A stretch of DNA of 64,000 nucleotides from a virus (lineage: Duplodnaviria; Caudoviricetes). The notes beneath the pieces are model-generated. The model was not told where the DNA came from. It did no database searches and was given only the letters and a program-made list of their open reading frames with translations. The number at the start of each line of letters is the position of its first letter. Within the stretch, counting starts at the first letter, position 1. A program made the position numbers and the translations under genes. Shown here piece by piece: positions 29,339-55,959 of this stretch. Location of the stretch: the IMG/VR virus record IMGVR_UViG_2657245717_000001, positions 1 through 64,000 of that record; one strand, 5' to 3'.

Positions 29339-29416
29339 GCCCCGTGTAGGCAAGCCCAGTGCCAGCACCCCCTGTCTGGTCGGGCGCGCGGTTCGAATCC
29401 GCGGCGGGGCACTCCA
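29339..29416 (+). ncRNA. tRNA-like element E1 (non-canonical)
   Basis: Acceptor GCCCCGT/GCGGGGC; T-arm CGCGG-TTCGAAT-CCGCG; 72-nt body plus ACTCCA; no canonical D or anticodon arm. Confidence 0.6.
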
Positions 29417-29444
29417 CAACCACCCCTGATGAGACGAGGCAGCC

Positions 29445-29804
29445 ATGAACTCGAACCTCCCCGCCGTGCCGACCATGACCGCCGACAACCTGCGTGGCGC
29501 GGTCACCGACATCATCAACGACCTCGACGCCACCTGGATCAAGAACGGTGCCGTGCGCATCGTCGACGCTGGCGACGGCTACCCGGGGACGGACGGGCCG
29601 ACGGTCACGGTGATCACCGACAGGATCACCGCTGGTCTGATCCGGACCGCGCTGCGCAACGGGACGCTGACCGCTGACCGGCTGTACGCCCGTGACCGGA
29701 TCGTCGTGGCGCAGCGTACGGCGGGGACGCGGGCGGCCGACCAGCAGCGGGTGGCGACGCGTAAGGCGCAGTTCCTCGCCAGGGCGCAGTTCCCCGCTCT
29801 GTGA
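29445..29804 (+). CDS. Hypothetical protein between two tRNA-like elements
   Basis: GAGG RBS; GC3-rich frame. Confidence 0.6.
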   Translation: MNSNLPAVPTMTADNLRGAVTDIINDLDATWIKNGAVRIVDAGDGYPGTDGPTVTVITDRITAGLIRTALRNGTLTADRLYARDRIVVAQRTAGTRAADQQRVATRKAQFLARAQFPAL

Positions 29805-29811
29805 TCCATCA

Positions 29812-29855
29812 GCCCTGACGGTCGTAGGGGAGGTTCGACTCCTCCCCAGGGCGCC
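29812..29855 (+). ncRNA. tRNA-minihelix-like element E2
   Basis: GCCCTG/CAGGGC stem; T-arm GGAGG-TTCGACT-CCTCC; 10-nt linker. Confidence 0.55.
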
Positions 29856-29916
29856 TCTTCCTCCCTCACCACCCTTGCCGCGCTCGGCGCGGCCTACCTC
29901 TCGACGGGAGACCCCT

Positions 29917-30348
29917 ATGACCATCCCCGCCATCGACCCGCACGCGGTCCGGGACCAGGCCGTGCACGCGTGGCTGATGCACGCCACCACCCACCGGTAC
30001 GACGCCCGCCTCACCACCTGGACCCACAGCGTGAACGCGGCCGGCGAGCCCGTGTGGTCCGCCGAGCTCGCCGGCGCTGACACGGCTACCGCTCTGCCCC
30101 GCTTCGCCTCCACCACCCGCCTGCCGCTGCGTACGGACTCCGACGTCCTGCCGATCCTCAGCGTCGAGCTGGAGGGGCGTGTGGCGGTGTGGTGGCGGCA
30201 GGGCGGGGTGTGGGTGGAGTTGTGGCATCCGGACCCGCTGCTGCCTGTCTCTTCGCCGTTGGGCGGGTTGTGGCGGCGGACGGTCGAGGTCCTGCCGAAG
30301 CCCAGCCCGAGCCTGTTCCCCGCCCAGACCAAGGAGACGACCCGATGA
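29917..30348 (+). CDS. Hypothetical protein
   Basis: GGGAG RBS; ATGA coupling downstream. Confidence 0.55.
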   Translation: MTIPAIDPHAVRDQAVHAWLMHATTHRYDARLTTWTHSVNAAGEPVWSAELAGADTATALPRFASTTRLPLRTDSDVLPILSVELEGRVAVWWRQGGVWVELWHPDPLLPVSSPLGGLWRRTVEVLPKPSPSLFPAQTKETTR

Positions 30349-30860
30349 GTGAGCCCATGACCGAGGAGCGCCTGGCGGCGATCGCTGACCGTGCCGCGCA
30401 CGCCTACGAGTACGACCCGTCCGAGCAGGCTGAGGTGCTGGCTGGCACTGATATTCCGGCTCTGCTCGCCGAGGTGGAGCGTCTCCGCGCCGAGCTGGCG
30501 CAGGTCCGGGAGGCGGCTGCCGCAGCCCGCTACTACCTCGGAGCCTTCGTTCACGACAGTGAGGACCCCGGCACGGGGGCGCTCGGCGCACTCCACATGC
30601 TGGGGGCCGCTGGCATCCCCGCCGAGCGGGGCGACCTGTCCGAGCAGGTGATGGCGCGGCACGTGGCTGTCGCTGTCGAGGAGGCTCTGGCCGCCCGCCC
30701 GACCCGCGCCGAGGCAATCCGCGAGGCGGCAGAAGCGGGAGAGGAGGTGGCGAACCGGATGCACTCCATGGGCTATGACGGTCGAGCAAGCGGCGCGTAC
30801 GACGTGGTTGACGAGCTGCGCCGCGCCGCCGACGACGCCGAGGCGGGTGAGTCGAAGTGA
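30345..30860 (+). CDS. Hypothetical phage protein (Ead/Ea22-like motif)
   Basis: MTEERLAAI..R; DIPALLAEVERLRAEL. Confidence 0.65.
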   Translation: MSEPMTEERLAAIADRAAHAYEYDPSEQAEVLAGTDIPALLAEVERLRAELAQVREAAAAARYYLGAFVHDSEDPGTGALGALHMLGAAGIPAERGDLSEQVMARHVAVAVEEALAARPTRAEAIREAAEAGEEVANRMHSMGYDGRASGAYDVVDELRRAADDAEAGESK

Positions 30861-31048
30861 GCGAGCCGATCTACTGCGGCCTGTGCCTCTACGGCTCTGA
30901 CATCGGCGTACCGGGCTACGACGACAAGGGCCCCGCGTACACCAACCCGGAGTGCCGAGACCACAACCCGAAGGCTCACGAGGCGGGTGAGGCGAAGCCG
31001 TCGGCCCGCGACGAACTGCCTGCGGGTGAGGACGACCTGCCGTTCTAG
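30857..31048 (+). CDS. Small hypothetical protein
   Basis: GTGA coupling; CxxC; DDLPF tail. Confidence 0.5.
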   Translation: MSEPIYCGLCLYGSDIGVPGYDDKGPAYTNPECRDHNPKAHEAGEAKPSARDELPAGEDDLPF

Positions 31049-31131
31049 CCGCGTTGGACGGTGCCGCCCTGCCCGTACCAGGGCGGCACCCGACCACAGG
31101 AGACCACGCCCACCCCGCCAGGAGGACCCAC

Positions 31132-31893
31132 ATGGGAGCAGCACTCCACCTCGCCCACGTCACCGAACTCCCCACCCGCAAGCAGAAGCGCAAGGGCGGA
31201 GGCAGCGGAGGCGACGGGTACGACCAACTCGTCACCCGGGTCTACCAGGACGAACGGATGACCAGCCAGGCCCGCGAGCTCATCCTGATGCTTGCCTGGC
31301 TCGTTCAGCGCGACCCCGACCGGTTCAACGAGGACAAGCCCGAAAGCCCGTGGAACCGGGCCAACACCATCCTGGGTACGTACGGGAACGGCCCCCGTAA
31401 GGGGTCTCGGCTTGCCGACCTCATCGACTCCGACCGGCCCCGATACGAGCCGGACTGGTCCAGCCAAGCGTGGCAGTCCCGCCGCTGCGCCGCCCCGATG
31501 ATCCGACGTGCAGGGGAGTGCGGTCAGACCGCCTCCGGCCATTCGCTGCGGATCGATCCGGAGACCGGTTGGCAGACCCCCGTCTGGTTCTGCTCCCGAC
31601 ACAAGGACTTCGGCCACAGCATCCGGCAGATGCTGAGTGCTGCGGAGCGCCCCGAGCCGATTCCGAACACGGGTGGGTTGATGCCGTCGTACCTGGAGGC
31701 GTCGGACGGTGACGCGGGATGGATTCGGGTCTACCGCAAGGCGTCGGACTGGAAGGGGTCTCGTTGGGAGCCGCCGAAGGCGTACGGCCTGTGCGCCGAC
31801 GACTGGCCGGTGCCCGGCCAGGACCCGATTCCGCAGCGTGCCCGCCTCCGCCTCGTCCTCGGCGGCACCCGACCACAGGAGACCACGCCATGA
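31132..31893 (+). CDS. Hypothetical protein flanked by 29-bp direct repeats
   Basis: AGGAGG RBS; C..PM.RR..ECG and WFC.RH motifs. Confidence 0.7.
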   Translation: MGAALHLAHVTELPTRKQKRKGGGSGGDGYDQLVTRVYQDERMTSQARELILMLAWLVQRDPDRFNEDKPESPWNRANTILGTYGNGPRKGSRLADLIDSDRPRYEPDWSSQAWQSRRCAAPMIRRAGECGQTASGHSLRIDPETGWQTPVWFCSRHKDFGHSIRQMLSAAERPEPIPNTGGLMPSYLEASDGDAGWIRVYRKASDWKGSRWEPPKAYGLCADDWPVPGQDPIPQRARLRLVLGGTRPQETTP

Positions 31894-32114
31894 CCCACCC
31901 CAACCCACTCACCCTCACCACCACCGACATCCACACCCTCCGCACCGCACTCGACACCCTCGCCCCCGACGACACCACCCTCCTCCGCCAACAACTCGCC
32001 GGAGCCCTCGCCGAACTCGACCTGTACCGGCAATGGCTCACCCACCGCACCCAACAGCTCGCCGACGCACACGACCTCATCCACCACCTCACCCACCCGG
32101 AGACCACCGAGTGA
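31890..32114 (+). CDS. Hypothetical coiled-coil protein
   Basis: AGGAG RBS; coupled. Confidence 0.55.
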   Translation: MTHPNPLTLTTTDIHTLRTALDTLAPDDTTLLRQQLAGALAELDLYRQWLTHRTQQLADAHDLIHHLTHPETTE

Positions 32115-32476
32115 CCGTCGTCCAGGTGAGCGTGGGCCCGACACACCACACTGACGGGCCCACCCACCACCACCTCAAAGCCCTCCCCCACCGTCCCGCC
32201 GACCCCCGCTACACCGTCACCCGCCGGCAACTCAACATCCTCCGCCTCATCGCCAACGGCAACACCACCACCGCCATAGCCCGACGCCTCGGCATCTCCT
32301 ACAACACGGTCACCTCGCAGGTCGCCAGCATCCACCGGAAGCTCCGAGTCTCCGACCGGGCGCAGGCTGTCGCTGTGGCGCTGTGTCTGGGCCTGCTGGA
32401 CATGGGCGACGTGCTGGTGCCGGACGGCGCGAACTCCAGCTACCGCACCCACACCACCTCGGAAGGAGCCTTGTGA
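32111..32476 (+). CDS. LuxR-type HTH regulator
   Basis: TRRQLNILRLIANGNTTTAIARRLGISYNTV..Q...IHRKLRVSDRAQAVA. Confidence 0.85.
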   Translation: MTVVQVSVGPTHHTDGPTHHHLKALPHRPADPRYTVTRRQLNILRLIANGNTTTAIARRLGISYNTVTSQVASIHRKLRVSDRAQAVAVALCLGLLDMGDVLVPDGANSSYRTHTTSEGAL

Positions 32477-33204
32477 CTGCCCTGCCCTGCCCCACCCCGA
32501 CCAAGAGCCGCTACGCCACCACCGCGGCCGCCGACCAGGCCGCCCGCCACGTGCAGATACCCGTCGGCACGATCATGCGGGCCTATGAGTGCCAGTGCGG
32601 CTGGTGGCACCTCACCCGCAGCAGCACGCCGGCCGAGCCCATCCCCTACGAAGACCTCACACCGGCTGACGGCGACGAGCAGCTCCTCGCCGGCGTCGGC
32701 CACAACCTATTCGCCGACGTCGTCGCCCGCGACATTCACGGCCGCGGCCCCATTGAGGAAGCCCTCGCCCTCCGCCACCCGACGAACGCACTCCGCTGGA
32801 AAGAAGCCCTGAAGGCGGCGTGGATCGCGTCGGAGAAGCAGATGGCCGCTCGCCGCGGTGACACGTCTGCGCAGGCGAAGGAGTGGCGGGCGCGGGCCGA
32901 GCAGTATCGGGCGGCGTTGCGGGTCCGCCGGCTGGAGGCGAAGCGCCGCGCGCACCCGTACCCGCGCACGCAGGGGCAGGCTCTCTCGCCGGCCGAGCAG
33001 GTGGCGGTTGAACGTGCTCGTGCTGCGGGGAGGCCGCGTCGGGAGCAGCGGCGTATCGCGGGTGATGTGGCGGTGAAGCTGTTGATCGCCGCGCATGAGG
33101 ACGAGTTCTACGGGCTGTTCGCTGCGGAGTGTGAGCGGCTCGGGTTGCCGTTGACGGCTCGGGATGAGGCCCGTGTGCAGCGTGGGTTGGGGGAGGCCGC
33201 GTGA
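32473..33204 (+). CDS. Hypothetical protein with N-terminal Zn-finger
   Basis: CPTPTK..Y.T...A...RAYECQCGWWHLT. Confidence 0.65.
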   Translation: MTALPCPTPTKSRYATTAAADQAARHVQIPVGTIMRAYECQCGWWHLTRSSTPAEPIPYEDLTPADGDEQLLAGVGHNLFADVVARDIHGRGPIEEALALRHPTNALRWKEALKAAWIASEKQMAARRGDTSAQAKEWRARAEQYRAALRVRRLEAKRRAHPYPRTQGQALSPAEQVAVERARAAGRPRREQRRIAGDVAVKLLIAAHEDEFYGLFAAECERLGLPLTARDEARVQRGLGEAA

Positions 33205-33352
33205 GCCCTGGATGTGTGACTGTCACGGCTGGCTGTGGGCATGTGTGGCGGCTGCCCGCGATGGTCGACTTGGCCGGCCGTGTGGTTGTGCCTGCTGAAA
33301 CGTGGTGCCGCGCTCATCAGGTGTGGCACACCGACACTGAGGAGACCGAACG

Positions 33353-33631
33353 ATGAGCGACACCCTTCCCGCCGACACTCTCCGCACGGCCGCCGAACGG
33401 CTGCGCGATGTCGCTCCGCAGATCACTGGGCCTCTCGCTGGACTCGCCGACCCCGTAGCCGACTGGCTGGAGGCAGCCGCACGCGACTACGAGGCCAGCG
33501 TCACCGCCGCCGACCAGGTGTTCCACGACGACCCGGAGGGGCGGCAGGCGTTCATCACCACCGGGCCCGGTGCCCCGTCTCCGCACGCCCTCGCTGTCGC
33601 CCACCACATCCTCGAAGGCGGTCCCCGATGA
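33353..33631 (+). CDS. Hypothetical protein
   Basis: AGGAG RBS; ATGA coupling. Confidence 0.6.
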   Translation: MSDTLPADTLRTAAERLRDVAPQITGPLAGLADPVADWLEAAARDYEASVTAADQVFHDDPEGRQAFITTGPGAPSPHALAVAHHILEGGPR

Positions 33632-34266
33632 CCGCTGGTGGTTCTGCATTTCAGCGCGCTGGCCAGTTAGCCCGCCGGAGCTGGTGGCAGCGTCTCCTCG
33701 CCCTCCTCGGTATACGCACCGCCCACGCCCGCCGTACCGCCTCGGCCGCCGCTCGCTGGGCCCACGGTGCCGAAGGCGAAGCCCACACCGCCCGCCTCCT
33801 CGCCCCACTCCAGACAGCGGGCTGGCACCTCCGCCACGACCTCGCCCTCCCGAAGTCCCGCGCCAACCTCGACCACGTCCTCGTCTCCCCGTGCGGCACT
33901 GCGCTCGTCGTCCTCGACACGAAACACTGGCACCGCGGCAAACCCACCCACCTGGTTGGCGGCCGTATCCACTGCGGTACTGACGACCGGCACGGCCAGG
34001 TCGAGGCCGTCGCACGGTACGCGCAGCGCGTCGCCACCACCCTCGGGCTCCCCGCCGGTCAGGTGGCGCCGCTCCTCGTCATCCACGGCTCCCCGATCAC
34101 CGGCGGCCGGCTCGAAACCCACACGCCCCACGGCCTGGTGCACGTCCTCGGTACGGACGGGTTGTTGCCCACGCTCCACGCCGCACCCCAGGGCCGTCCG
34201 AACGCCCGCGCCGCGGCCAGGCTCACGGCCCGCGTCGACCAGCATCTCCGGCCCTACCAGCAGTAG
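33628..34266 (+). CDS. NERD-domain nuclease-like protein
   Basis: W..GAEGE..TA..L; HDLALP...ANLDHVLV...VVLDTKHW; TTA at 33667. Confidence 0.85.
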   Translation: MTAGGSAFQRAGQLARRSWWQRLLALLGIRTAHARRTASAAARWAHGAEGEAHTARLLAPLQTAGWHLRHDLALPKSRANLDHVLVSPCGTALVVLDTKHWHRGKPTHLVGGRIHCGTDDRHGQVEAVARYAQRVATTLGLPAGQVAPLLVIHGSPITGGRLETHTPHGLVHVLGTDGLLPTLHAAPQGRPNARAAARLTARVDQHLRPYQQ

Positions 34267-34278
34267 CCCGCACCATCC

Positions 34279-34314
34279 GGCGCCCACCCCAGTCCACAGG
34301 GGTGGGCGCCTTCT
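34279..34314 (+). terminator. Hairpin terminator
   Basis: GGCGCCCACCCC...GGGGTGGGCGCC followed by TTCT. Confidence 0.75.
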
Positions 34315-34349
34315 CCCGTTTCGAGCGGAGACCGGCGTATCCTCAGCCG

Positions 34350-34580
34350 GTGGCAATCGAACTGACTCCCGAGTTGATCGCTCTGCAAGAGGCTGCTGAT
34401 GCGGCTGGCCAGCGTGTGTCTGCGACGCCGAATGACGGTAAAGCGCGGCAGGCGTGGTTCACGGCGTCTGCTGAGGTGCAGGCCGCGGTGACGGAGCACG
34501 CTGCGGCTGCTGGGCTGAACCGTTTCGAGCTGGAGAAGGCTCTGCGCCGGCATGTGCGGCATCCGGAGCTGCGGGACTGA
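34350..34580 (+). CDS. Small conserved actinobacterial protein
   Basis: AIEL..ELIALQ.AA...W...VQAAVTEHA.....RFELE.ALRR.VRHP. Confidence 0.6.
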   Translation: MAIELTPELIALQEAADAAGQRVSATPNDGKARQAWFTASAEVQAAVTEHAAAAGLNRFELEKALRRHVRHPELRD

Positions 34581-35151
34581 CACGCCTCTTCCCTCGCCCT
34601 GTTGTGCGCCCGCATCCTGGCCGTGCAGCAGGGCGGTGTCGTGTCCGCCCTCGGGGGAGACGTCGGCTGGCGACCATTTTGCGGAGGTGCGCAATATGGT
34701 CGGGAGGGGGTGGCATCCGTGACGTGTGGCCAGTGTGGCGCGGAGGTGGCGGGCCTGGATGGGCGGTATGCGTGTGGGGTGTGTGGGTGGGTGAACCGGT
34801 ATGACGAGGGGCATCGGGCGTTGCCGTCGGCGGAGGACGATCCGGACTACCCCGGGCCCGGCGCTTGACGGTCTTGGGCGGCGAGGAGCTGCCTGAGGTG
34901 CTCCCGCCGTGCATGGACAGCTCGCCCTAGCTGTTCGACGTCGAGGGCGGCTCGGCGGTGCGCAGCGCTTCCTGGGGTGGCTGCGGCGAGGCGTGCGCGG
35001 GCCTTCTCCAGTGATGCTTCGCGGGCGGCGAGGCGCCGCTGGACGGTGTCGATGTTCTGCATGGGCTCAGGGTCGCTGAGGTGGTGGCCGGCGGGTGGGG
35101 GTTTTGGGTGTCTGGGGGTGAAATCGCTGGTCATGGGGTGCGGCCCTAGAC

Positions 35152-35167
35152 TCGAACGTATGAACGA
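35152..35167. promoter_or_regulatory. LexA (SOS) box-like site over a leaderless start
   Basis: TCGAAC-GTAT-GAACGA versus actinobacterial TCGAAC-N4-GTTCGA; abuts a TAGACT -10 box. Confidence 0.55.
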
Positions 35168-35492
35168 CCTCACGCCCGAGCAGCGCCTGGAGAAGCACCG
35201 CGCCGTGCGGGACTGGCTGGGCTGGCAGTACCGGCAGGCACAGAAGACGGTGAACGACCTGGAGCGGCAGATCACCGCTGACCGGCACCGGGCGGAGAAG
35301 GCCCGGCGGGAGCGGTCGTGGAAGGTGCAGCCGGAGCGTGCGGGTCGTCCGGCGATGCTGCATCGCGGGGGCTGCTCCCTGTTCAAGACGGAGCTGGGCT
35401 ATCTGAACCGCGAGGAGGCGGTGATCGCGTTGGAGGAGGAGGGGTTGGAGGCGTGTGAGGTGTGCCGGCCGGAGGTGGATCTGCGGGGGTGA
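35160..35492 (+). CDS. DUF6233-like Zn-binding protein
   Basis: LHRGGC......L.REEA..AL......ACEVCRP motif. Confidence 0.75.
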   Translation: MNDLTPEQRLEKHRAVRDWLGWQYRQAQKTVNDLERQITADRHRAEKARRERSWKVQPERAGRPAMLHRGGCSLFKTELGYLNREEAVIALEEEGLEACEVCRPEVDLRG

Positions 35493-35742
35493 CCTGGCGG
35501 CGGCATCGGCTTCGAGGTGACGGCGCCGCCAGGACGTGCAGAGCATGCCACGGGGCCCGGACCATGACGGTCGCGGGCCCCGATGTGTTTCGAGAGTCGT
35601 TAGTCCTGGGTGGGCTCTGTCGCGCCCCAGCCGAGGTCGACCACACCCCACCCGATGTCCGCGAACCCCCAGCCGATGTCGCTGCTCATCACGTCCCCCT
35701 CCCTGCTGCTTGTGGTGCTCGGCAGCCTACGCCCGGCCACCG

Positions 35743-36795
35743 TCACGCGGACCAGGTTCCACGGATCGCTGCCGTGTTGAATCCGGGCCCGTAGGCGACC
35801 ATCACGCCCTGCGCCCCGGCTGCGGGCGGCTCCGCGTGCGTCCGCTCCAGAATCCGCAGCACCGACGGCCCGCCCAGGTTCCCTTCATCGGCGAGCGTCG
35901 CCGTCGAGTGGCGCGTGTCGTGCTCGTCCAGGCCGAGAGCCCGCGCCGTATCCGTGATGATCCGCTGACTGCCGGGGTGGATGACAGCCCAGTCCACGAT
36001 GTGCTGCTGGCCCAGCCACCCGGTGACGCCGGGCAGCACGTCGTCCGCAGCGCTGAGGGCTTCCTTCGTGGAGTCGAAGTGCAGGCCCGTGCTGTCGATG
36101 CGGCCGGCGTACCGGGTGAGACTGTCCGGGAGAACGTGCTCGTACGTGTCGGCCGGCCCGGCGAGGGTGAAGCCGGGGCCGTGGGGCTGGTCGCTGACAA
36201 TGGTCGCCGCGGCACTGTCCCCGAACAGCGCCTTGTAGATCATGTGCTCGACCTGGTTGTCGGCGTGGTTGTAGATCGTGGAGATGACCTCCGCAGCCAC
36301 CACCAGGACACGAGACCCGGGCCGGGCGGCCACCATGTCGGTGGCGCGGATGAGGGCCTGTGTGCCGCCGGCGCAGGCGAGGGTGGTCAGCCCGATCCGC
36401 TGCACAGTGGGCGACAGGCCGAGGCGCTGCACGAGGTGGATGTCGAGGCCGGGGACGGCCCAGCCGGTGGAGTGCGTGGTGACGATGCCGGTGATGTCGG
36501 CCGGGTCGAGGCCGTGGAGGGCGAGCGTGTCGCGGGCGGCTTGCTCGGCCATGTCGAGGGCATCTTCGAACGCCGCGGCTGCGCGGTTCCCGACGGGCGC
36601 GGTGCCGGTGATGGTGTCGGCGGTGAGCGGCCTGGTGAAGTGCCGGGTCTGCACTCCGGTGTTGCCGACGATGCGGAGGATGGACCGCAGCCGCGGATGG
36701 TCGGCGTGGTGGTGCCGAATGTCGTCCGCTATCTCAGCGGTGGTGACTTTGTGGGCGCCGAGGATGGTGGTGGGCTGGGCAATGTGGATGGCCAT
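35743..36795 (-). CDS. Type III polyketide synthase (RppA/PhlD/Gcs-like)
   Basis: Cys-His-Asn triad (LACAGG, IHPGS, EGNLGG); ALFGDSAAA; YGPGF; NTGVQTRH. Confidence 0.95.
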   Translation of the reverse strand: MAIHIAQPTTILGAHKVTTAEIADDIRHHHADHPRLRSILRIVGNTGVQTRHFTRPLTADTITGTAPVGNRAAAAFEDALDMAEQAARDTLALHGLDPADITGIVTTHSTGWAVPGLDIHLVQRLGLSPTVQRIGLTTLACAGGTQALIRATDMVAARPGSRVLVVAAEVISTIYNHADNQVEHMIYKALFGDSAAATIVSDQPHGPGFTLAGPADTYEHVLPDSLTRYAGRIDSTGLHFDSTKEALSAADDVLPGVTGWLGQQHIVDWAVIHPGSQRIITDTARALGLDEHDTRHSTATLADEGNLGGPSVLRILERTHAEPPAAGAQGVMVAYGPGFNTAAIRGTWSA

Positions 36796-36961
36796 GAGGT
36801 CTCCCCTGGGCAGTTTCTGAACCGGGTGCGGGGGAGTGCTCACGGTACGGCTCTTTGGCTTGATCGTTGCCCCGGCTTTTCGCCGTCTTGATGCGTGACC
36901 AGCGGCGTGTGGGGCCGCCGCTGGTGTGGTGGTGCGCGTGGGGTGGCTGAGACGCGTGTGG

Positions 36962-46302: not shown

Positions 46303-46381
46303 GGTGAGGCTCCAAGGGGTCTCAGAGCGGCGGCCAGTCTCGTGGAAGGGTTCTGGCCGCCGTCTCGCGTTTGAGGGGCTG

Positions 46382-47523: not shown

Positions 47524-47843
47524 GCTGCCACCCCCGCCGCGAGAGAGGAGGTGCTAGCACTACCAGCCGGGCTCGCACAGTTACTGTGCGTTGCACTTTC
47601 AGTGCTGGGGGTCTTGCGGGTATCGTTCACCAGGAACGACCTGCTTTCTGCTGTGAGGTTCGTTTGACGCAGCGGTTGCGACCCGCTGTTTGTGCTTGGT
47701 GGCCGGTGGAGCTGAGGCTCGCCGGCCACTTGCATGTCTGAACGCTATCGAGCATTTCGCGGGGTATTGCCCCTGCTAAACGCCCCTTCACCAGGGCCAC
47801 CGTCGAGGTCGACGGTCCTGGCCGCGGCCGTGGTGTTTGTCCA

Positions 47844-48482: not shown

Positions 48483-48840
48483 CGGTCGTTCCCGTCCTCT
48501 TGGCCCGCCGGGCGCCCTTGTCGGGGCCGCGTCCAGCGATGGGGTGATTTTGGAAGTAGTCGAGGAAGGGGCCTGTCTCCATAACCGCCGCGTTGGCGAT
48601 CTGCCAGTACGCGTGTGCGCGGCCTTCGCCGAAGGGCCAGTCCGGGTTGGTCGAGGCGATGTGCCTGATGCCCTGGTGGGTGATGTGGTCGACGATGCCG
48701 AGTTGCATCAGGAGGTCCGCCCCGCCCTGGAAGGTGACGACGGGGGGAATGGGGATGTGCTTGGGGTCGCCCTGTTGGGCGCTAGTGAAGCTCACTAGTA
48801 GGCTCCTATACGTGAACAGCTCATCGCTGGGTTGCTTCAC
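48475..48840 (-). CDS. Hypothetical DNA-binding protein
   Basis: ITHQGIRHIA....WPFG; RGPDK..R tail; start uncertain. Confidence 0.5.
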   Translation of the reverse strand: MKQPSDELFTYRSLLVSFTSAQQGDPKHIPIPPVVTFQGGADLLMQLGIVDHITHQGIRHIASTNPDWPFGEGRAHAYWQIANAAVMETGPFLDYFQNHPIAGRGPDKGARRAKRTGTTDA

Positions 48841-48948
48841 ACTGCTGCCGACTCCGCAGGTCGGTAGTGCTCAAAGGACGGCCGGTTGGGGTCCGTAGCC
48901 CCTCCGGCCGTTCGTGCGTCCTGACTGGATGCCCGAACGCGTCAATGA

Positions 48949-49710
48949 TCAGGCGTTCTCGGCTCCCTCCTGCGTCTCTTCATCGCTGGACCGCAGCGAC
49001 GTCGTCCAGCGAAGGATGGTCGAGCCCTCCGCCACCTTGACGGCAACCTCGACAACGCGACCGTCCGCCAACGTCACGGTCCGAACGACCTGGGTGACAA
49101 CCACATCGGCGGCCGTCAGCCCCAGGGCCTCCTTCTCCGCCGTGGTGGCGAGGCGGCTGGTCACTTCCTCCAGCACCTCGTCCTGCGGAGAGCCGAGACG
49201 CGACGCCGCCAGCTCCCGAGAGGCCCCGGTGGACACCGGCTCCTGAAGCTCAGGCGTCACCGCGATCACGTACGCGGGGTAGTAGCTGCTGCTGATGTGT
49301 ACAGGCACTTCGCCACGGCTCACGACGCGCCGACGGACCTGGACGGGCGTACCAGGAGCAACGTCGAGGCGGGGGGCCACCAGCGCGTCTGCGCCGACCG
49401 TGCCCACCTCGATGATTCGCGACGACTCGCCGCCACTCATCGCGCTACCTGTAGCGGCGTGCAGAGCAACCCGCGCGCCGATGCTGGTGCTGGCCGGTGA
49501 CGCCACCACCGTCTTCGCGCCCGGGCGCGTGAGGGTCAACCCCTCCATCTTGAGAACCCGGTATGCGCGGTTCACGGTCGTATGCGCGACGCCGAACTGC
49601 TCCTTGGCCTGCGTGTAGCTCGGCATCTCGTCGCCGGGGCGGAGTGTTCCGTCATGGATCAGCCGGCGGAAGTGGTCGGCGATCTCTGCATACCCGGGGG
49701 TCTCTGGCAT
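48949..49710 (-). CDS. GntR/UTRA repressor (KorSA/TraR-like)
   Basis: GYAEIADHFRRLI.DG.L.PGD.MPS......FGVA..TV.RAY..L plus UTRA domain; divergent from the tra operon. Confidence 0.9.
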   Translation of the reverse strand: MPETPGYAEIADHFRRLIHDGTLRPGDEMPSYTQAKEQFGVAHTTVNRAYRVLKMEGLTLTRPGAKTVVASPASTSIGARVALHAATGSAMSGGESSRIIEVGTVGADALVAPRLDVAPGTPVQVRRRVVSRGEVPVHISSSYYPAYVIAVTPELQEPVSTGASRELAASRLGSPQDEVLEEVTSRLATTAEKEALGLTAADVVVTQVVRTVTLADGRVVEVAVKVAEGSTILRWTTSLRSSDEETQEGAENA

Positions 49711-49793
49711 GGCCTCCTCCTTTCTTAGGTGTGCACTGCCCACCTCGTCGTGTGCAGCGGTGTCCTTCTGAGATTAGTCGAAGAAAACTTGTT

Positions 49794-49809
49794 GCGCTAC
49801 TAGTAGCGC
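49794..49809. promoter_or_regulatory. 16-bp perfect palindrome, probable Kor operator
   Basis: GCGCTACTAGTAGCGC in the kor/tra divergent intergenic region. Confidence 0.65.
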
Positions 49810-50137
49810 TCGCGGCGTAGTGTGGTCTACATTGAGGTGGTCGGCAAGCGCGGGACCCCCCGAAACGCCGAAAGGCCCAGGTGCGCGAACACCTGGACCT
49901 CTCAGGGGCCCCGAAGGACCCGGCGAACCAACGCCCGACCTGCGCAAACAGGAGGTTGATCCGCGTGAACCAGCGTAACCGCATCACCGGAAACACCGCG
50001 ACCACCACCCCCGACGTGAACGAGTGCCTGCGTCAGTCCCGCAGCACCAGCACCACGCCGTCGACCGCCCGCCAGCTCGTCGCCGTCGGCATCCGCCGGC
50101 CCGGCAACGGCCCGCTGATCATCAAGGCGGTCTGACC

Positions 50138-50605
50138 ATGGCGCTCAACGACCCCGCCCGCGACGCCGCCGAGCACCTCTACCAGCAGCTCGCCCGCCTC
50201 GCCTGGATCGACAACGACAACACCGACCGCATCCACGTCACCCTCAGCCTTCCCGACGGCACGCTCATCGGCTCCACCGACCTCGCCGCCACCACCATCG
50301 GCGAACTCGGCGACACCGCCCAGCACAACGCCGACGACTACCAGCAGGCCATCGGCGAGCAGGTCGCCTACTTCGAAGAGACCCTCATCGACCCGCAGCT
50401 CGCCCAGGACGTGGAGGACTGCCTCTCGCCCTACCTCGACGGGCAGCTCCACCCCGACGCGCTCGACGAGATCGAGGAGCACCTGAACAGCCTCGACCTG
50501 ATGGACCTGCTCAACGTGGCACGGAGCGCCCCGGACGAGGAGAGCGGCATCCGCGCTTTCGACTACCTCGTCACCGGCGAGATCGACGAGGACGGAGCCC
50601 TCTGA
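50138..50605 (+). CDS. Acidic hypothetical protein (tra operon)
   Basis: GC3-rich frame; D/E-rich; TGATG coupling. Confidence 0.65.
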   Translation: MALNDPARDAAEHLYQQLARLAWIDNDNTDRIHVTLSLPDGTLIGSTDLAATTIGELGDTAQHNADDYQQAIGEQVAYFEETLIDPQLAQDVEDCLSPYLDGQLHPDALDEIEEHLNSLDLMDLLNVARSAPDEESGIRAFDYLVTGEIDEDGAL

Positions 50606-51024
50606 TGCACAGCCCCTACGGCCCCGTCCACACCCCCGGCAACGCCGTCCCCAACATCGACGACACCGAACTCGGCCGAGCCCTCGACTCCCTCCACGGC
50701 GTCCACCCCGGCCTGACGCTCGTGGCTGACGGACTCCGGCACATCGCCCACGACCGGCACCACATCACCCGCATCCCCACCATCCTCAACGCCCTCGCCG
50801 GCGACCCCCACGGCCACAGCCTCATCGACGTCATCGGCCACCTCGTCGCCCGCCTCACCGACGCCGACCAGACCCCGACCCTCCGGCAGCTCAACCTCGA
50901 CGAGCAGAAGACCGTGCAGCAGCTCGGCGAGGAGTCCCTGTACCAGCTGACCGACATGGACCTTCAGAAGCCGGCTGCGGAAGCGGCGGTCGTCCTCGAC
51001 GAGATCGAGTCGAAGTCCACCTGA
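50605..51024 (+). CDS. Hypothetical protein (tra operon)
   Basis: GGAG RBS; coupled. Confidence 0.65.
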   Translation: MHSPYGPVHTPGNAVPNIDDTELGRALDSLHGVHPGLTLVADGLRHIAHDRHHITRIPTILNALAGDPHGHSLIDVIGHLVARLTDADQTPTLRQLNLDEQKTVQQLGEESLYQLTDMDLQKPAAEAAVVLDEIESKST

Positions 51025-51092
51025 CCATCCCCACCGCGCGGGGGCGGTCGACGCCGACAACGGCCGCCCCCGCCTCACCCGAGAGGCACGCC

Positions 51093-51311
51093 ATGAGCAA
51101 GACCTACTTCTGGGTCGCCACCCTTCACACCAACACCCCTCACGGCCCCCGCATCACCTCCGACAAGGGCCTCGTCACGCCCGGCCTCACCACCGGCCAG
51201 ACCCGAGCCGAGCTGTACACCACCGTCCTCAACGCGGTCTGCGAGCGCCACGGTCTCTCGATCGCCGACAGCGCGGTCACGTTCTGGTCCCTCGAACCGA
51301 ACGACGTCTAG
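51093..51311 (+). CDS. Small hypothetical protein
   Basis: YFWVATL...TR.ELY...V.FWSLEPN pattern; GAGG RBS. Confidence 0.65.
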   Translation: MSKTYFWVATLHTNTPHGPRITSDKGLVTPGLTTGQTRAELYTTVLNAVCERHGLSIADSAVTFWSLEPNDV

Positions 51312-51319
51312 ACCCCCCA

Positions 51320-51371
51320 GCCTCGGCCCAACCGTGACGGTGCCGGATCGAATCCGCGCCCGAGGCACGCA
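51320..51371 (+). ncRNA. tRNA-like element E3
   Basis: GCCTCGG/CCGAGGC stem; CGG-ATCGAAT-CCG T-arm; CCGTGACG linker; ACGCA tail. Confidence 0.55.
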
Positions 51372-51453
51372 CACCGAACGCCCAGAGGAAACGCCCCACC
51401 AGGGCCAGTACCGAAGGAAGCGTCCGCACCTTGAGAACTCCACAGCACCACAA

Positions 51454-51516
51454 GCCCCGGCCCCGCACCCCGCGGGGGCCGTGACGACGCCGACTCAACC
51501 CCGGCCCGGGGCACGC
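51454..51516 (+). ncRNA. tRNA-like element E4
   Basis: GCCCCGG/CCGGGGC stem; GCCG-ACTCAACC-CGGC arm; CCGTGACG linker; ACGCA tail. Confidence 0.5.
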
Positions 51517-51556
51517 AACCACCGCCCGAACCCGCCCACCACCGAAAGGCCCGGAC

Positions 51557-51724
51557 ATGAACCAGCAGGCCACCCCCGCCTACGAGCCCGTCAGCGACGA
51601 CGACGCCCGACTCCACCTCGCCCAGATCATCGGCTCCGACCTGGACACCACCGTCTGGACCGGTGACTGGCACCAGACCCTCCGCGACACCGCAGCCGCC
51701 TGGACCACCGACCTCGCCGCCTGA
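51557..51724 (+). CDS. 55-aa hypothetical protein
   Basis: GAAAGG RBS; MNQQATPAYEPVSDDDARLHL; GC3-rich. Confidence 0.55.
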   Translation: MNQQATPAYEPVSDDDARLHLAQIIGSDLDTTVWTGDWHQTLRDTAAAWTTDLAA

Positions 51725-51735
51725 AGGAGACCCCC

Positions 51736-51912
51736 ATGACCAACCGTCCCATCACCCCCGCCGAAGCCCACCTCGTCGCCACCGCCGTCACCCTCGCCGC
51801 CACCAAGGGCGAGACCGTCTGCCGCGCCGTCGCCAGCACCTTCACCCAGGACCAGCTCGCCGCCGCCAAGGAAGTCCTCGAAAACGACCTCAACCAGAAG
51901 CCCACCCAGTAA
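51736..51912 (+). CDS. 58-aa hypothetical protein
   Basis: GAAGGAG RBS; MTNRPITPAEAHLV. Confidence 0.55.
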   Translation: MTNRPITPAEAHLVATAVTLAATKGETVCRAVASTFTQDQLAAAKEVLENDLNQKPTQ

Positions 51913-51949
51913 CCCCACACCGCACACCAACCAGAAAGGACCCCCAGTC

Positions 51950-53221
51950 GTGACCACCGCCCCGGCCGGCCAGACGCCGCCCCCACTCCCCACCCTCGGG
52001 GACTGGCAGCCCCTGCCCAACCCCGGGGCCACCACCCCCACCAAGCCGACCACCCAGACCCCCGTCAACCCCGCCACCCCCGACGGCGTTGGCGTCACCG
52101 GCTGGATCATCCGCGTCGTCCTCGCCCTCGTCATGACCGCCGCCCTCGGCGTCGGCACCTGGAGCATCTACACCCTCCTCACCGACACCTTCAACGTCCC
52201 CAACGGAATCGCCCTCCTCGGCTGCGGCCTCTTCGACGTCGCCGCCATCCTCTTCGCCCTCCTCTCCCAGCAGTACGCCACCACCACCGACAGCGGCCTC
52301 GCCCCCCGCCTCGCCATGCTCGCCATGGTCACCACCAGCTCCTGGGTCAACTGGAAGCACGCCGAACTAGAGCAGTGGGGCACCGTCGGCGGCGTCATCT
52401 TCGCCTCCGCACCCGTCATCGCCGAGCTCTCCTTCGAGATGTGGCACCGCTTCGAGCACCGCGAAGCGCTCCGCCGACTCGGCCGCGTCCCCGAGGCGCT
52501 CCCCGTCCTCGGCAAGTGGGCGTGGATCGCTCACCCCCTCCGCGCTCGGAAGACGCTCGACGCTCACATCAAGGCCACGCTCACCGAGCACGAGGCCATC
52601 GCCACAGAGCGCGAATCGGTCAGCGCTCAGCGCGCTCGCATCATCGTCCAGAACGCCGCCCCGGCGCTCACCCGAACCGACATGAGCGCCACCAACCCGC
52701 CGAGCGTGAGCGCGCGCATCCGCCCGCTCACCTCCCCTGAGCGCCCCGCGCTCGCAACCGGCACCGACGCTCAGAGCGCGCCCACGCTCACCCAGACGCC
52801 CGACGCTCACACCCCGACCGAGCGCCCCGCGCTCACCCCCAGCCCTGAGCGAGCGCCCGACGCTGACGCTCACACCAGCCCGAGCGCCCCCACTGAGCGC
52901 ACTCCTGAGCGCCCCACCAACACACGCTCAGAGCGCGCTCAGGCCAAGCCCGCCAAGGCTGAGCGCCCCCAGGCGGGCGCTCAGAGCGCGCCCAGCCTCG
53001 ACGAGCGGAAGGCGCTCAAGAAGAAGGAAGACACGCTCACCCTCGCGCTCTACAAGACGCTCAACAGGCGCCCGGAGTGGACGGACATCCGAGACGCGCT
53101 CACGAGCGCCGGACTCCGCACCGTCTCCCGGCCCACCGCTCAGCGCATCCGTGAGCGCGTCGAAGCCGCTCACCCCGACCTGCTCAGTGAGCGCCCCGAC
53201 GCGCTCACCGCGACGAGCTGA
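51950..53221 (+). CDS. SpdB/DUF2637-like plasmid spreading membrane protein
   Basis: Four TM helices, low-complexity linker and C-terminal HTH-like domain; located in the kor-traB region. Confidence 0.8.
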   Translation: MTTAPAGQTPPPLPTLGDWQPLPNPGATTPTKPTTQTPVNPATPDGVGVTGWIIRVVLALVMTAALGVGTWSIYTLLTDTFNVPNGIALLGCGLFDVAAILFALLSQQYATTTDSGLAPRLAMLAMVTTSSWVNWKHAELEQWGTVGGVIFASAPVIAELSFEMWHRFEHREALRRLGRVPEALPVLGKWAWIAHPLRARKTLDAHIKATLTEHEAIATERESVSAQRARIIVQNAAPALTRTDMSATNPPSVSARIRPLTSPERPALATGTDAQSAPTLTQTPDAHTPTERPALTPSPERAPDADAHTSPSAPTERTPERPTNTRSERAQAKPAKAERPQAGAQSAPSLDERKALKKKEDTLTLALYKTLNRRPEWTDIRDALTSAGLRTVSRPTAQRIRERVEAAHPDLLSERPDALTATS

Positions 53222-53243
53222 CTCACCTAAGGAGACCCGCTCA
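52465..53243. repeat. Dense CGCTC(A)/(T)GAGCG motif array
   Basis: About 48 copies by manual count, in both orientations and several reading frames. Confidence 0.85.
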
Positions 53244-53479
53244 TGACCAACCAGTGGACCGCGAACACCGCCGCCGAAGCCCTCAACCTCCTCAAGGCCG
53301 CCCAGGACCGCATCGAAGCCAGCCTCCTCGCCGCCCACCCCGACCTCCAGCAGCACCAGCTCCACAAGGCAGGCCGCGAGATCCCCCTCCGCCTCGACAT
53401 CACCTTCGACATCAGCCACCTCGACCAGCTCGCCAACGACCGCGGCACCTTCAACGCGCAGATCAGGGAGATGCCGTGA
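53243..53479 (+). CDS. Small hypothetical protein (tra region)
   Basis: AAGGAG RBS; W..N...LHK....IPLR.DI....HL pattern. Confidence 0.65.
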   Translation: MTNQWTANTAAEALNLLKAAQDRIEASLLAAHPDLQQHQLHKAGREIPLRLDITFDISHLDQLANDRGTFNAQIREMP

Positions 53480-53822
53480 CCACCAGCCTCGCTTCGGCCG
53501 CCTCCCCCACCACGGGGGCGGCCCCCGCCCCGGCCAGCCCGCAGCCCACCGTCGACCCCGAGCTTGCGGAGATCGCCGACGAGCTGTGGGCCGCCATCTG
53601 CCACATCGAATCCCTCAACCCGTACACCACACACAGTCACCACTCCGACGGCAACACCAACGCCAACACCAATCCCAATCCGGCGCCCCACACCCCGATC
53701 CCCGCCCCCAACCACCCCTGAACAGGCAAAACAGAGCCGGTTGGTCTTGGGATTGGCCTTCCAGTTGGCATCCCGGCCATCACCATCCGTAACCGCCATC
53801 AAGCCCGCGAGGAGCCCCCGAC

Positions 53823-55832
53823 GTGAGCACCAGCCTCAACCTGGCGCCCGGCCAGACACCGCCCGGTGCCGCGCCCCAACCCCCCACCACCCAGCCCCCG
53901 ACCCAGAACCCCACACCGAAGAAGACCAAGACCCCCGACCCCAGCACGGACCCCCACGGCACCGTCGGCGGCGTCATCATCCCCGGCGCGGCCCTCTCCA
54001 GCTTCATCGGCCTGTGCTGGCTCATCCACCAGTACGGCCTGCCCGCCGTCCTCCTCGGCGTCGTCGCCTGCGCGGTCGCCGCGACGGGCGCGCTCATCCT
54101 CCGGGCCAGCCGGTCGAGGAAGCGCAGCCCGCTCCGCCCCGGCGGCTTCTTCCGCTCCGGCGGCGGTGGCGGTGGGCCGGGTCCGCGGGCGCCGAAGCTT
54201 CCGCGGTCGGGTGGCCGGCAGCGGTCGACGCTCGGGTCGCTGGGTGCCTCGAACCGTGCCGCGGGCCGGAACGCTCCTCGCTCCTCCGGCGCCGGCCGTA
54301 CCGGGGGGACCCTCGGTGGCGGGGGTCGCGGTGCCGGGAACCGCAGCGGCAGCCTCGGCAGTCTCGGCGGCGGTACGCGGAAGCCGACCGGTCCCTTTTC
54401 GCAGAAGACGTCGGGCAGCCTCGGCAAGACCAACCAGCCCCGCACCAACACTCCGAACCTCAACAAGCGGTTGTCCGGCAGCATCCTCGCCCCGCACCGC
54501 ACCCCGACCACCAACACCGGATCAGGTGGCGGTGCGGGCAAGACCGGGCGCGGCAGCGGCAAGCACCGGAAGCACTCCAACACCGGCCACGGCACCGGGC
54601 GGGGCGGGCTTCTCTCCCGCATCCACGACCGCCGCACCGCTCCCCTGAAGAACCCCAAGGGACCGAAGGGACCGAAGCTCCCCAAGAACAACAGTGCGGG
54701 CAACGGCGGCACCCTCAGCCCCCATAAGCCCGGCAAGCAGCCGTACAAGAACAAGCCGATCCACACCCCGACCCGGCCCCTCACCAAGAAGGCCGCCGCC
54801 CTCGCCCGAGCCATGGCCCGCGCCGCCAAGCGCAACAACCGCACCCGCCCCCGCCGCACCAAGCCCAACCACCTCAAGGCCACCCCGAAAACCCCCGCCC
54901 ACCTCCGCGGCGCCAAGGCCCGCCGCTACGCCCGCGCCGTCCGCCGCGCCACCGCCCCCCGCCGGCTCCGCGCCCGAGCCCTCCACCACGCCCGCCGCGG
55001 CACCTACCTCGTCGGCGTCAAGGCCCGCAAGCACCTCCCCTACAAGCTCAAGCGCCGTCTCCGCCACGCCAACAAGCTCCGACGCGCCATCACCCGCCGA
55101 GCCGGCCGCCTCATCTCCAAGCCACTCGCCCACGCCTACCGCACCGGCGCCCGATGGTTCCTCAAGGCCCACCTGCGGCTCGGTACCCGCCGCTACACCG
55201 CCGCCGGACCGAACTGGATGCGGCCCCTTACCCGCCTCCTTCACGTCGTCACCAGCCCCGCCGCCCGCCTTGTTTCGGCGACCGGCTCCTGGACGTGGCT
55301 CAACAAGTGGATCTACCGGCACACCACGCCCGGCGCCCTCAACCGCGTCAACCCCCACCCGCAGCAGCCCGCACCCTCCCCGGCCGGGCCCACCGCACCG
55401 ACCGTCCCCACCCAGCGGAACACGATCACACCCCCGCACCTCTCGGAAGGAACCATTCTCATGGCGCAGGCCGCGCAGCCCCTGGAGCAGGCCGTCGAAG
55501 CCGTCCTCAACGCCGGGACGCAGCTCCTCACCAACCCCGCCGACAACATGCTCGGCTACGAGGCTGTTCTCGCCCGACTCGGCGAAGTGCAGAACGCCAT
55601 CAGCCAAGTCCTCGCGCAGGCCGCCGAGACCACCCGGGAGAACTTCAAGGTCAACCCGGCCGTCGCGGACGCCTACAACGACTCCGCGACCTTCGCCGCT
55701 TCCCTCGGCGACCGCCTCAATGAGATCCCGGCCCTGTACCGCAACCTCCACGCCGAGCAGATCGACAACATCGAGAACCCCACGGTCCAGGCCCGCAAGT
55801 GGGACATCGCCTCCAACGAGCACGGCGCCTGA
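53823..55832 (+). CDS. Large membrane-anchored G/R/K-rich transfer/spreading protein with probable internal start at 55461
   Basis: Two TM helices, Gly-rich and highly basic region, acidic helical C-domain preceded by GGAAGGA RBS. Confidence 0.7.
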   Translation: MSTSLNLAPGQTPPGAAPQPPTTQPPTQNPTPKKTKTPDPSTDPHGTVGGVIIPGAALSSFIGLCWLIHQYGLPAVLLGVVACAVAATGALILRASRSRKRSPLRPGGFFRSGGGGGGPGPRAPKLPRSGGRQRSTLGSLGASNRAAGRNAPRSSGAGRTGGTLGGGGRGAGNRSGSLGSLGGGTRKPTGPFSQKTSGSLGKTNQPRTNTPNLNKRLSGSILAPHRTPTTNTGSGGGAGKTGRGSGKHRKHSNTGHGTGRGGLLSRIHDRRTAPLKNPKGPKGPKLPKNNSAGNGGTLSPHKPGKQPYKNKPIHTPTRPLTKKAAALARAMARAAKRNNRTRPRRTKPNHLKATPKTPAHLRGAKARRYARAVRRATAPRRLRARALHHARRGTYLVGVKARKHLPYKLKRRLRHANKLRRAITRRAGRLISKPLAHAYRTGARWFLKAHLRLGTRRYTAAGPNWMRPLTRLLHVVTSPAARLVSATGSWTWLNKWIYRHTTPGALNRVNPHPQQPAPSPAGPTAPTVPTQRNTITPPHLSEGTILMAQAAQPLEQAVEAVLNAGTQLLTNPADNMLGYEAVLARLGEVQNAISQVLAQAAETTRENFKVNPAVADAYNDSATFAASLGDRLNEIPALYRNLHAEQIDNIENPTVQARKWDIASNEHGA

Positions 55833-55842
55833 CACACCCCCA

Positions 55843-55906
55843 GCCCTGGCCCCACCCCACGTGCGGGGCCGTGACGGCGCCGGATCGAAACCGGCCCAGG
55901 GCACCA
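55843..55906 (+). ncRNA. tRNA-like element E5
   Basis: Perfect 7-bp GCCCTGG/CCAGGGC plus ACCA; T-arm GCCGG-ATCGAAA-CCGGC; directly before traB. Confidence 0.65.
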
Positions 55907-55959
55907 GCACCACCCCCAATACCCGCCACCCATAACCCGCCCGACAGGAGACCCCGACC

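Follow-up and report, generated by a model that had tools for sequence, protein, structure and literature searches.

tRNA-like minihelices between genes in the operons of Streptomyces phage-plasmids and related mobile elements

Introduction

Punctuation of messages by tRNAs is textbook knowledge for mitochondria, and the enzymes of tRNA maturation (RNase P, the 3' processing activities and the CCA-adding enzyme) read the acceptor/T-arm half of the tRNA, so that minihelices reduced to this half can be substrates. We analyzed a 64,000-nucleotide window at the start of a virus record that consists of a single contig of 88,079 bp (IMGVR_UViG_2657245717_000001, Caudoviricetes; 69.5% G+C), in which five intergenic elements, here called E1 to E5, resemble the acceptor/T-arm half of a tRNA. 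The closest described counterparts are the t-elements of plant mitochondria, which end mRNAs via RNase P and RNase Z (Forner et al., 2007; PMC1920247). Like E1–E5, t-elements are tRNA-like folds with a conserved T arm that lie in messages (putative ones, in our case) beside coding regions and have reduced or non-canonical lower arms, and some of them are simple acceptor-like stem-loops. They differ in being organellar, few per genome, not members of one sequence family, and with ends mapped experimentally. The minihelices described below, which we know from their sequences, belong instead to mobile elements of bacteria and make up a tight sequence family, marked by a fixed acceptor stem, an A at T-loop position 54 and a CGYGA mini-hairpin.

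Three other systems invite comparison. The mascRNA and MEN-beta RNAs are small tRNA-like RNAs released from a longer transcript by a cut that also forms the 3' end of the RNA upstream. The mascRNA family (RF01684) was the best Rfam match of E1, but it belongs to vertebrate nuclear long non-coding RNAs (lncRNAs), and E2–E5 did not match it. The attC sites are imperfect palindromes right past the stop of each promoterless gene, in one orientation; their outer parts are conserved, their inner parts vary, and their borders are exactly where gene content changes. They differ from the elements in lacking tRNA features and in acting as folded single-stranded DNA with a neighboring IntI integrase and an attI site, whereas no IntI-type integrase or attI was seen beside the elements, for which recombination would be read from comparisons among relatives. 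Finally, the annotated tRNA-Gly genes of phages AbbeyMikolon and Lilbooboo lie, like our elements, between early genes on the sense strand and share the acceptor stem and T arm of E1 or the minihelices. In these phage genes the anticodon arm departs from the canonical form (with a 9-nt loop, or a stem of 7 bp and a loop of 5 nt), whereas the minihelices have no such arm.

The literature searched contained no paper on tRNA-like elements in the plasmids, conjugative elements or phage operons of Streptomyces, although subscription journals and supplements may contain transcript maps that bear on the matter, and no description of tRNA punctuation as a device used family-wide in plasmids, integrative conjugative elements or phages of bacteria. 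The accessible portion of a survey of Streptomyces non-coding RNAs (ncRNAs) does not mention tRNA-like elements, and the corresponding portion of the paper on phage Samy mentions four induced phage tRNAs but not the E1-type locus considered below.

Results and Discussion

Five tRNA-Like Elements of Three Kinds

A circular 86-kb Streptomyces albidoflavus plasmid is about 94% identical across the transfer region of the window. More distant relatives are pCQ3, pCQ4 and several 85–99-kb Streptomyces plasmids, which also carry terminase genes and are therefore phage-plasmids; the transfer region had no match among phage records.

All five elements that a sequence-only reading of this DNA had proposed were recovered at their places by reading the sequence, on the + strand and after a stop codon, with script-derived distances from the upstream stop of 19, 7, 8, 142, and 10 nt for E1 to E5, respectively. 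Each starts with GCC and, in minimum-free-energy (MFE) folds, has an outer stem of 6–7 bp stacked directly on a hairpin with a 7-nt loop, and the motif CCGTGACG is common to E3, E4, and E5. The proposal that the five make up one family did not hold, as they are of three kinds (E3–E5, E1, and E2; Table 1). E1 combines a 7-bp acceptor stem and a canonical T arm (loop UUCGAAU) with a discriminator A followed by CUCCA; relative to a canonical cloverleaf it has no D hairpin, and its long inner arm is a 7-bp stem capped by a 5-nt CCCCC loop. In E2, a linker of 10 nt joins an outer stem of 6 bp to a 6-bp T-like stem with the canonical loop UUCGACU, and the discriminator is G. In E3, a T stem with a bulged C carries the loop AUCGAAU, and the same element is found in pCQ3 and NZ_CP109240. 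Both E4 and E5 have an extra 5' hairpin; E4 has an A·C at the closing pair of the T stem and the loop CUCAACC, and E5 has a CCGUGACGG hairpin, the T loop AUCGAAA, and a discriminator A followed by CCA. In E2–E5, linkers of 10–31 nt take the place of both lower arms of a cloverleaf.

Standard tools recognized little of this. ARAGORN, expected to give a pseudogene or nothing, made no call for E2–E5 and called E1 tRNA-Thr(tgt). At gathering score, no Rfam family was matched anywhere in the window. In E-value mode, E1 matched mascRNA-menRNA at 19.6 bits (E 0.49; the gathering score of RF01684 is 42.5), E2 matched tRNA-Sec at 18.9 bits (E 0.96), and nothing relevant was found for E3–E5. The tRNA family RF00005 had no match up to E 10, and the only matches of the tRNA clan were tRNA-Sec at E2 and a cyano_tmRNA fragment inside E1. 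A structure-only scan of the window returned 112 and 202 matches on the two strands, because a genome of such high G+C gives stems by chance, while a strict descriptor (7 + 5 bp, loop NTCGANN) was matched at three places on the + strand, including E1 and E5, and at one on the - strand, with a mean of 0.24 per strand in 50 shuffles. None of E1–E5 is followed by the T run of an intrinsic terminator.

A Minihelix Family Behind E3–E5

A covariance model, R1, was trained on E3 plus three copies from other plasmids, leaving out E5, E4, and E1. R1 found E5 (43.8 bits, E 7.5e-8) and E4 (20.7 bits, E 0.025); it matched E1 weakly (16.4 bits, E 0.27) and did not find E2. A second model, R2, did not find E4 at E<=0.05. 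On these matches, E3–E5 are paralogues, with E4 a decayed copy of the main family. The minihelix family has no match in Rfam.

The family extends well past the window. BLAST identified an E3-like element in the unrelated plasmid pFP11, and R1 a copy with a compensated T stem in a plasmid of S. atratus. We then collected copies with a pattern of 18 bases spanning the T arm and the 3' acceptor strand, which matched at least 120 stretches in species genomes and 17 in viral contigs (at least 143 matches in all). Among the matches listed, 73 of 143 have a perfectly complementary 7-nt strand upstream, and 61 of these 73 have a linker of 15–18 nt; none of the 73 listed has the 41–45-nt spacing of a real tRNA. 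The other 70 listed matches come mostly from non-actinomycete DNA and served as chance background. Copies off the pattern were found with the models (in total, 57 and 32 matches for R1 and 93 for R2). Partial R1 matches inside the GntR genes of two related phage-plasmids (L007 and L008) were not significant (E 2.7–3.8).

In an even sample of 151 Streptomyces species genomes, at least 26 hold the family at E<=0.001, with 1–5 matches each, counts that are lower bounds given the 40 candidates scored per genome. Fifteen plasmid records, all of Streptomyces, carry it, with nothing annotated beneath the matches. Copies lie exclusively in operons that belong to conjugative or phage modules and, at no fewer than 1–5 per genome, do not resemble dispersed repeats of the REP or MITE type, which number tens to hundreds. 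A main-family minihelix is 47–64 nt long and consists of a 7-bp acceptor stem stacked on a 5-bp T stem, with a small CGYGA hairpin. Among 112 distinct copies, the acceptor stem is GCCCCGG/CCGGGGC in 87 while the T stem occurs in 17 versions; the T loop is AUCGAAU in 62, AUCGACU in 25, and AUCGGAU in 7; the linker measures 15–18 nt in 93 and contains CGYGA in 104.

Selection on the Fold and Its Strand

The minihelix fold is under selection, on the sense strand, at a fixed place a few bases past stop codons. In the alignment of the 93 R2 matches (88 distinct rows), 95.2% of cells pair versus 89.7% in shuffles, both-sided changes occur in 7 of 15 pairs (47 cells), and none of 500 shuffles reached the observed values. 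When the partner was slid by 1–3 columns, pairing dropped to 13–62%. These numbers lean towards structure, because the alignments were fitted to the models and most of the first set was collected by pattern. A set found by the model only, from an even sample of the genus (28 rows, two of which are a true 73-nt tRNA), gave similar values: 94.7% pairing, 6 of 15 pairs compensated, including 4 of the 5 T-stem pairs, and 0 of 500 shuffles as high. The excess of G·U-type over A·C-type cells (15 versus 6 in the 88-row set and 9 versus 3 in the 28-row set) favors the sense strand as the folded one.

Genes for tRNAs are integration targets of actinomycete mobile elements, and the elements described here could in principle be non-functional debris, either decayed tRNA genes or att remnants of integrating elements, as the visibly degenerate E4 might suggest. 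The retention and covariation of both acceptor strands largely refutes this, and other observations agree: tRNA spacing is missing from all 73 paired matches listed, E1 has changed at one position across four plasmids with differing flanks, and copies stand inside operons between unrelated genes (155 flanking proteins fall into 87 clusters). We therefore consider debris hardly credible, and decay from att sites of host tRNAs, the case that the sequence-only reading had said would overturn it, is not what the paired and covarying 5' strand indicates. Among the 143 matches listed there was no canonical tRNA with this T arm and acceptor, a statement that covers those matches and not whole host tRNA sets. 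ARAGORN made 12 calls on 157 high-GC loci (nine distinct rows listed), mostly tRNA-like elements and too few for a comparison of host-tRNA flanks.

Placement Directly After Stop Codons

The position of the copies is as regular as their shape. A coding-like open reading frame (ORF) on the same strand ends 5–23 nt upstream (median 11 nt) in at least 68 of the 111 distinct copies that lie far enough from the ends of their loci, compared with 5 of 111 in an opposite-strand control; the gene test misses ORFs shorter than 50 codons, so 68 is a floor. On the other side, 95 of 111 copies have a same-strand start within 150 nt, with modes at 31–56 and 74–133 nt.

The bases around the fold are also constrained. 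Among 119 copies, the base at -2 is C in 99, that at -1 is A in 67, C in 40, and T in 3, the discriminator is A in 108, and the next base is C in 117. The second base past the discriminator is G or T and the third is C in 82. CCA comes right after the discriminator in just 4. The 3' flanks are C-rich (11% T over 40 nt).

A Graded Series From tRNA to Minihelix

E1 is a full-size tRNA-like RNA for which decoding is unlikely. It recurs in pCQ3, pCQ4, and NZ_CP109240 with no difference other than one improving change, from U·G to U-A, and has homologues in phages Samy (83%), AbbeyMikolon (annotated as tRNA-Gly), and Nesbitt (unannotated), of which the AbbeyMikolon and Nesbitt copies carry CCA. In five sequences of this type, 5 of 23 predicted pairs are compensated and the inner arm with its C-rich loop cap is always kept. 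ARAGORN names them inconsistently (Thr, Gly, and nothing in Nesbitt), which shows that the E1 type has no proper anticodon loop. A viral contig (L144) carries both an E1-type element, called a 66-nt tRNA-Gly(ccc) by ARAGORN, and a minihelix at 7531–7577; the two kinds therefore co-occur elsewhere too.

E2 has short-linker relatives with different T stems in six viral contigs of 49–70% G+C, and the copy in contig L200 is nearly identical. Viral contig L198 (61% G+C) has a second GGTTCGAT T-loop motif within about 30 nt after its E2-like element (- strand, ~9806–9875, reversed locus), which suggests tandem minihelices.

Between gp13 and gp14 of phages phiBT1 (L193, ~954–1026) and Lilbooboo (L194, 940–1027) lies a tRNA-like gene, unannotated in the former and annotated as tRNA-Gly in the latter, with a normal D arm, a 9-nt anticodon loop, and the T arm and acceptor of the minihelix family. 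These elements form a graded series in the same kind of place, from the phiBT1 type with a D arm, through E1 without it, to minihelices without both lower arms, in which just the half read by RNase P, 3' processing and the CCA-adding enzyme survives. They always lie between co-directional genes.

A Proposed Signal for tRNA-Maturation Enzymes

Our favored, still tentative reading is that the elements are an RNA signal read by tRNA-maturation enzymes. As RNA structures inside polycistronic messages that mimic the acceptor/T-arm half of tRNA, they would be recognized by the host enzymes after transcription. RNase P would cut at the first G, a 3' endonuclease or exonucleases would trim to the discriminator, and the CCA-adding enzyme might act next. 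The operon message would thereby be divided into separate mRNAs with their own ends and stabilities, and a small tRNA-like RNA would be released. We infer every one of these enzymatic steps. What speaks for this reading is the tRNA-like shape, together with the folded strand, the placement past stops, the gradation from tRNA to minihelix, and the precedent from mitochondria. For the tRNA punctuation put forward by the sequence-only reading, this means that shape, sense-strand position past stops, and compensatory changes fit, while the processing itself is what we infer.

Several observations weigh against it. The folding-energy z-scores of E1–E5 are weak (-1.1 to -2.1). Position 54 of the T loop is A and not U in the main family. 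The acceptor sequence is nearly fixed (87/112) and the flanking bases are conserved (C at -2 in 99/119 and C after the discriminator in 117/119), and visible variation is lowered, with a possible bias, by the first collection of most copies with a pattern that fixes part of the T arm and acceptor. Nucleases that read shape do not explain such fixed letters, which point to a partner that reads sequence, whether in the RNA, where the letters would be identity-like, or in the DNA, where they would form a recombination core. RNase Z is reported to be hindered by a CCA motif, to which the C after the discriminator belongs. The element is dispensable: at the place of E5, between the upstream gene and putative traB, four related phage-plasmids lack it, and in all four a plain 10–11-bp GC hairpin without a U tract stands there (Table 1). 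A search of sequencing runs for positions 51000–56100 returned no RNA run covering the stretch.

The plain hairpins at the E5 place show that a simple hairpin can fill the slot. They fit an alternative in which the elements are generic intercistronic hairpins that block 3' exonucleases or damp read-through, with the tRNA likeness a relic of an ancestral tRNA gene; the position 5–23 nt past stops, as with 3' stabilizers, and the absence of the element from many relatives would suit it as well. A relic, however, would not keep the 7 + 5-bp stack, the discriminator A, a compensated T stem, and a 7-nt loop that has UCGA in almost every one of the 112 copies, and the U tract for intrinsic termination is absent. 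Nor are strong hairpins general elsewhere. The notion that plain hairpins fill the slot everywhere was rejected for a gene of 772 aa that follows a number of copies, upstream of which stems of at least 8 bp occur in 3 of 29 regions versus 3 of 90 control windows. We regard the generic hairpin as unlikely.

The near-invariance of the acceptor leads to a different alternative, in which the released small RNA is itself the product, a working tRNA mimic that acts as decoy or regulator for a synthetase, the CCA-adding enzyme, EF-Tu, or a toxin acting on tRNA 3' ends. An acceptor that stays put while the T stem drifts behaves like an identity element, the discriminator is nearly always A, and CCA is present on E5 and on the AbbeyMikolon and Nesbitt copies of the E1 type. 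There is also a real 73-nt tRNA with anticodon CAA and the same acceptor stem in 3 of 5 Streptomyces genomes searched. Set against this are the scarcity of CCA past the discriminator (4/119), the count of at least 1–5 copies per genome, a position tied to stops and not promoters, and the lack of a co-occurring partner gene (the RapZ_C-like neighbors of some loci are absent here). A mimic without an anticodon arm also cannot decoy anticodon nucleases. The proposal of the sequence-only reading that the elements are decoys against tRNA-targeting defenses thus finds no support for anticodon nucleases, because E2–E5 have no such arm, and is left only for readers of the acceptor end. Overall, we hold the mimic to be distinctly unlikely. 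The chromosomal tRNA(CAA) is 73–74 nt long, has no long variable arm, and matches the family acceptor stem exactly; it may be the ancestor or the identity partner of the family.

Gene Content Changes at the Elements

Comparison with relatives revealed changes of gene content next to the elements. In pCQ3, pCQ4, and NZ_CP109240, identity with the window stops right past the E1 discriminator and its C, and the downstream flank of E2 follows. Contig L200 has E1, an unrelated gene, E2, and then the flank that follows E2 in the window. From the three relatives and L200, the slot between E1 and E2, which holds a 119-aa gene in the window, is filled differently or empty. In pCQ3, E3 is followed by the flank that follows E4 in the window, and the one element of pCQ4 is a hybrid, E3-like in its 5' half and followed by the window's post-E4 flank. 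The 86-nt spacer between E3 and E4 (51368–51453), possibly an emptied gene slot, has no visible ORF, is identical in NZ_CP109240, and is missing from pCQ3 and pCQ4. Directly 3' of E5, NZ_CP109240 carries an extra 62-aa gene with no second element after it. E5 does directly precede putative traB in the window, as the sequence-only reading stated, but with this gene intervening in the closest relative a tie to traB falls away, and E5 belongs to the end of the upstream gene.

On a wider scale, 122 pairs of copies from different loci have similar 200-nt flanks, 12 of them on both sides, 29 upstream only, and 81 downstream only. Likeness is lost within 9 nt past the discriminator in 27 of the 29 and no more than 7 nt ahead of the first G in 80 of the 81, edges whose sharpness is partly expected with such short spacers. 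In our reading, gene order changes at the elements because they are the only conserved DNA between variable genes.

The same joints could mean that the elements work at the DNA level, as recombination sites where small genes enter, leave, or swap, either as an analogue of attC or as pseudo-att sites for tRNA-targeting tyrosine recombinases. The variable E1–E2 slot with joints right past the discriminator and C, the flank combination in pCQ3, the hybrid in pCQ4, the extra gene right past E5 in NZ_CP109240, and the one-sided likeness of 110 of the 122 pairs, with breaks at the borders, are all compatible with this. So are the fixed outer and variable inner stem letters, which recall attC, the arrays of small genes and elements (for example, three copies about 300 nt apart in L134), and the tyrosine recombinase encoded in the genome. 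On the other hand, the T-loop consensus and tRNA geometry would play no role in such sites, the recombinase gene lies more than 20 kb away, and the arrays have no dedicated integrase. No second element comes after the extra gene in NZ_CP109240, any conserved module set between unrelated genes with short spacers should show sharp borders, and microhomology at the shared 3' ends could yield the same deletions. We judge a DNA-level joint improbable. Equally improbable in our view is the version in which the elements border exchangeable gene slots through structure-specific recombination past the discriminator and C, as integron-like sites shaped like the top half of a tRNA that would also cut the message into units of one gene each.

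Arrays of two or three minihelices 270–430 nt apart, with ORFs of 56–88 aa between them, were seen in L134 (2641–3306), L027, L051, L092, L133, L162, L165, and L167, and look like cassette arrays. The tyrosine recombinase gene (7164–7637) was the one clear match in the genome, with a weak second match; no serine recombinase was found in the genome.

Neighboring Genes and Other Features

The neighbors of the minihelices are small genes. Families represented among the flanking proteins include DUF6284, DUF6251, the RapZ C-terminal domain, NUDIX, primase-polymerase/D5_N, and DUF2637, which we take to be the usual content of actinomycete conjugative and integrative elements. Small proteins that consist of the RapZ C-terminal domain only (PF22740) are encoded beside minihelices in several integrative elements, as in L067 (5154–5561), L075, and L090, and one is also present in L007 (11220–11696). 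RapZ is an RNase adaptor in E. coli; the idea of a RapZ_C adaptor was dropped, as this genome encodes no RapZ_C protein. The 772-aa protein follows 11 copies. It is unlike the putative TraB of the window and belongs to no Pfam family, and no R2 match lay within 1.5 kb of its 30 best homologues; an element before traB as a general theme was accordingly discarded.

Within the window, the 119-aa protein had no Pfam family and no tblastn match in plasmids or phages. The assignment of putative traB rests on a weak FtsK_SpoIIIE match, below the cut-off, and a nucleotide match to a gene annotated as DNA translocase FtsK. A perfect palindrome of 31 bp, richer in AT than its surroundings (CATACTC..CAATGGAGTATG type), occurs in four copies (11135–11165, 22922–22952, 28922–28952, and 41947–41977), with none expected in 100 shuffles. 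One copy precedes E1 by about 400 nt, and the palindrome has the look of a phage-plasmid operator or promoter site.

Table 1. Positions of the tRNA-like elements, neighboring genes, and comparison features (window coordinates unless a locus is named).
Feature	Position	Strand	Description and evidence
E1	29339-29411, tail to 29416	+	73-nt tRNA-like RNA; sequence, ARAGORN, fold
119-aa gene between E1 and E2	29445..29804	+	ORF, GC3 0.91
E2	29812-29853	+	42-nt minihelix; sequence, fold, Rfam tRNA-Sec 18.9 bits
72-aa gene	51093..51311	+	ORF, GC3 0.93; stop 8 nt 5' of E3
E3	51320-51367	+	48-nt main-family minihelix; R2 55.7 bits
E4	51454-51513	+	Degenerate 60-nt copy; R1 20.7 bits, E 0.025
55-aa gene	51557..51724	+	Starts 43 nt 3' of E4; cluster 9, shared with L149
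669-aa gene	53823..55832	+	ORF; no Pfam family; stop 10 nt 5' of E5
E5	55843-55903, CCA at 55904-55906	+	61-nt minihelix; R1 43.8 bits
Putative traB, 712 aa	55960..58098	+	ORF; starts 56 nt 3' of E5
Plain hairpins at the E5 place	L008 7926-7951, L009 7919-7944, L007 7922-7951, L006 477-502		
tRNA(CAA)	L176 1500-1573, L177 1500-1573 (- strand); G003:C1:4066955-4067027		

Implications

Whichever reading holds, current annotation mislabels some copies as tRNA-Gly or tRNA-Thr and overlooks all the others. If the elements are recombination joints, they would represent a new way of gene shuffling. If they are processing signals, they would offer compact parts for operon design in antibiotic producers and would explain how genes of Streptomyces transfer and early operons, for example a lethal transfer gene, can be expressed at differing levels from one transcript.

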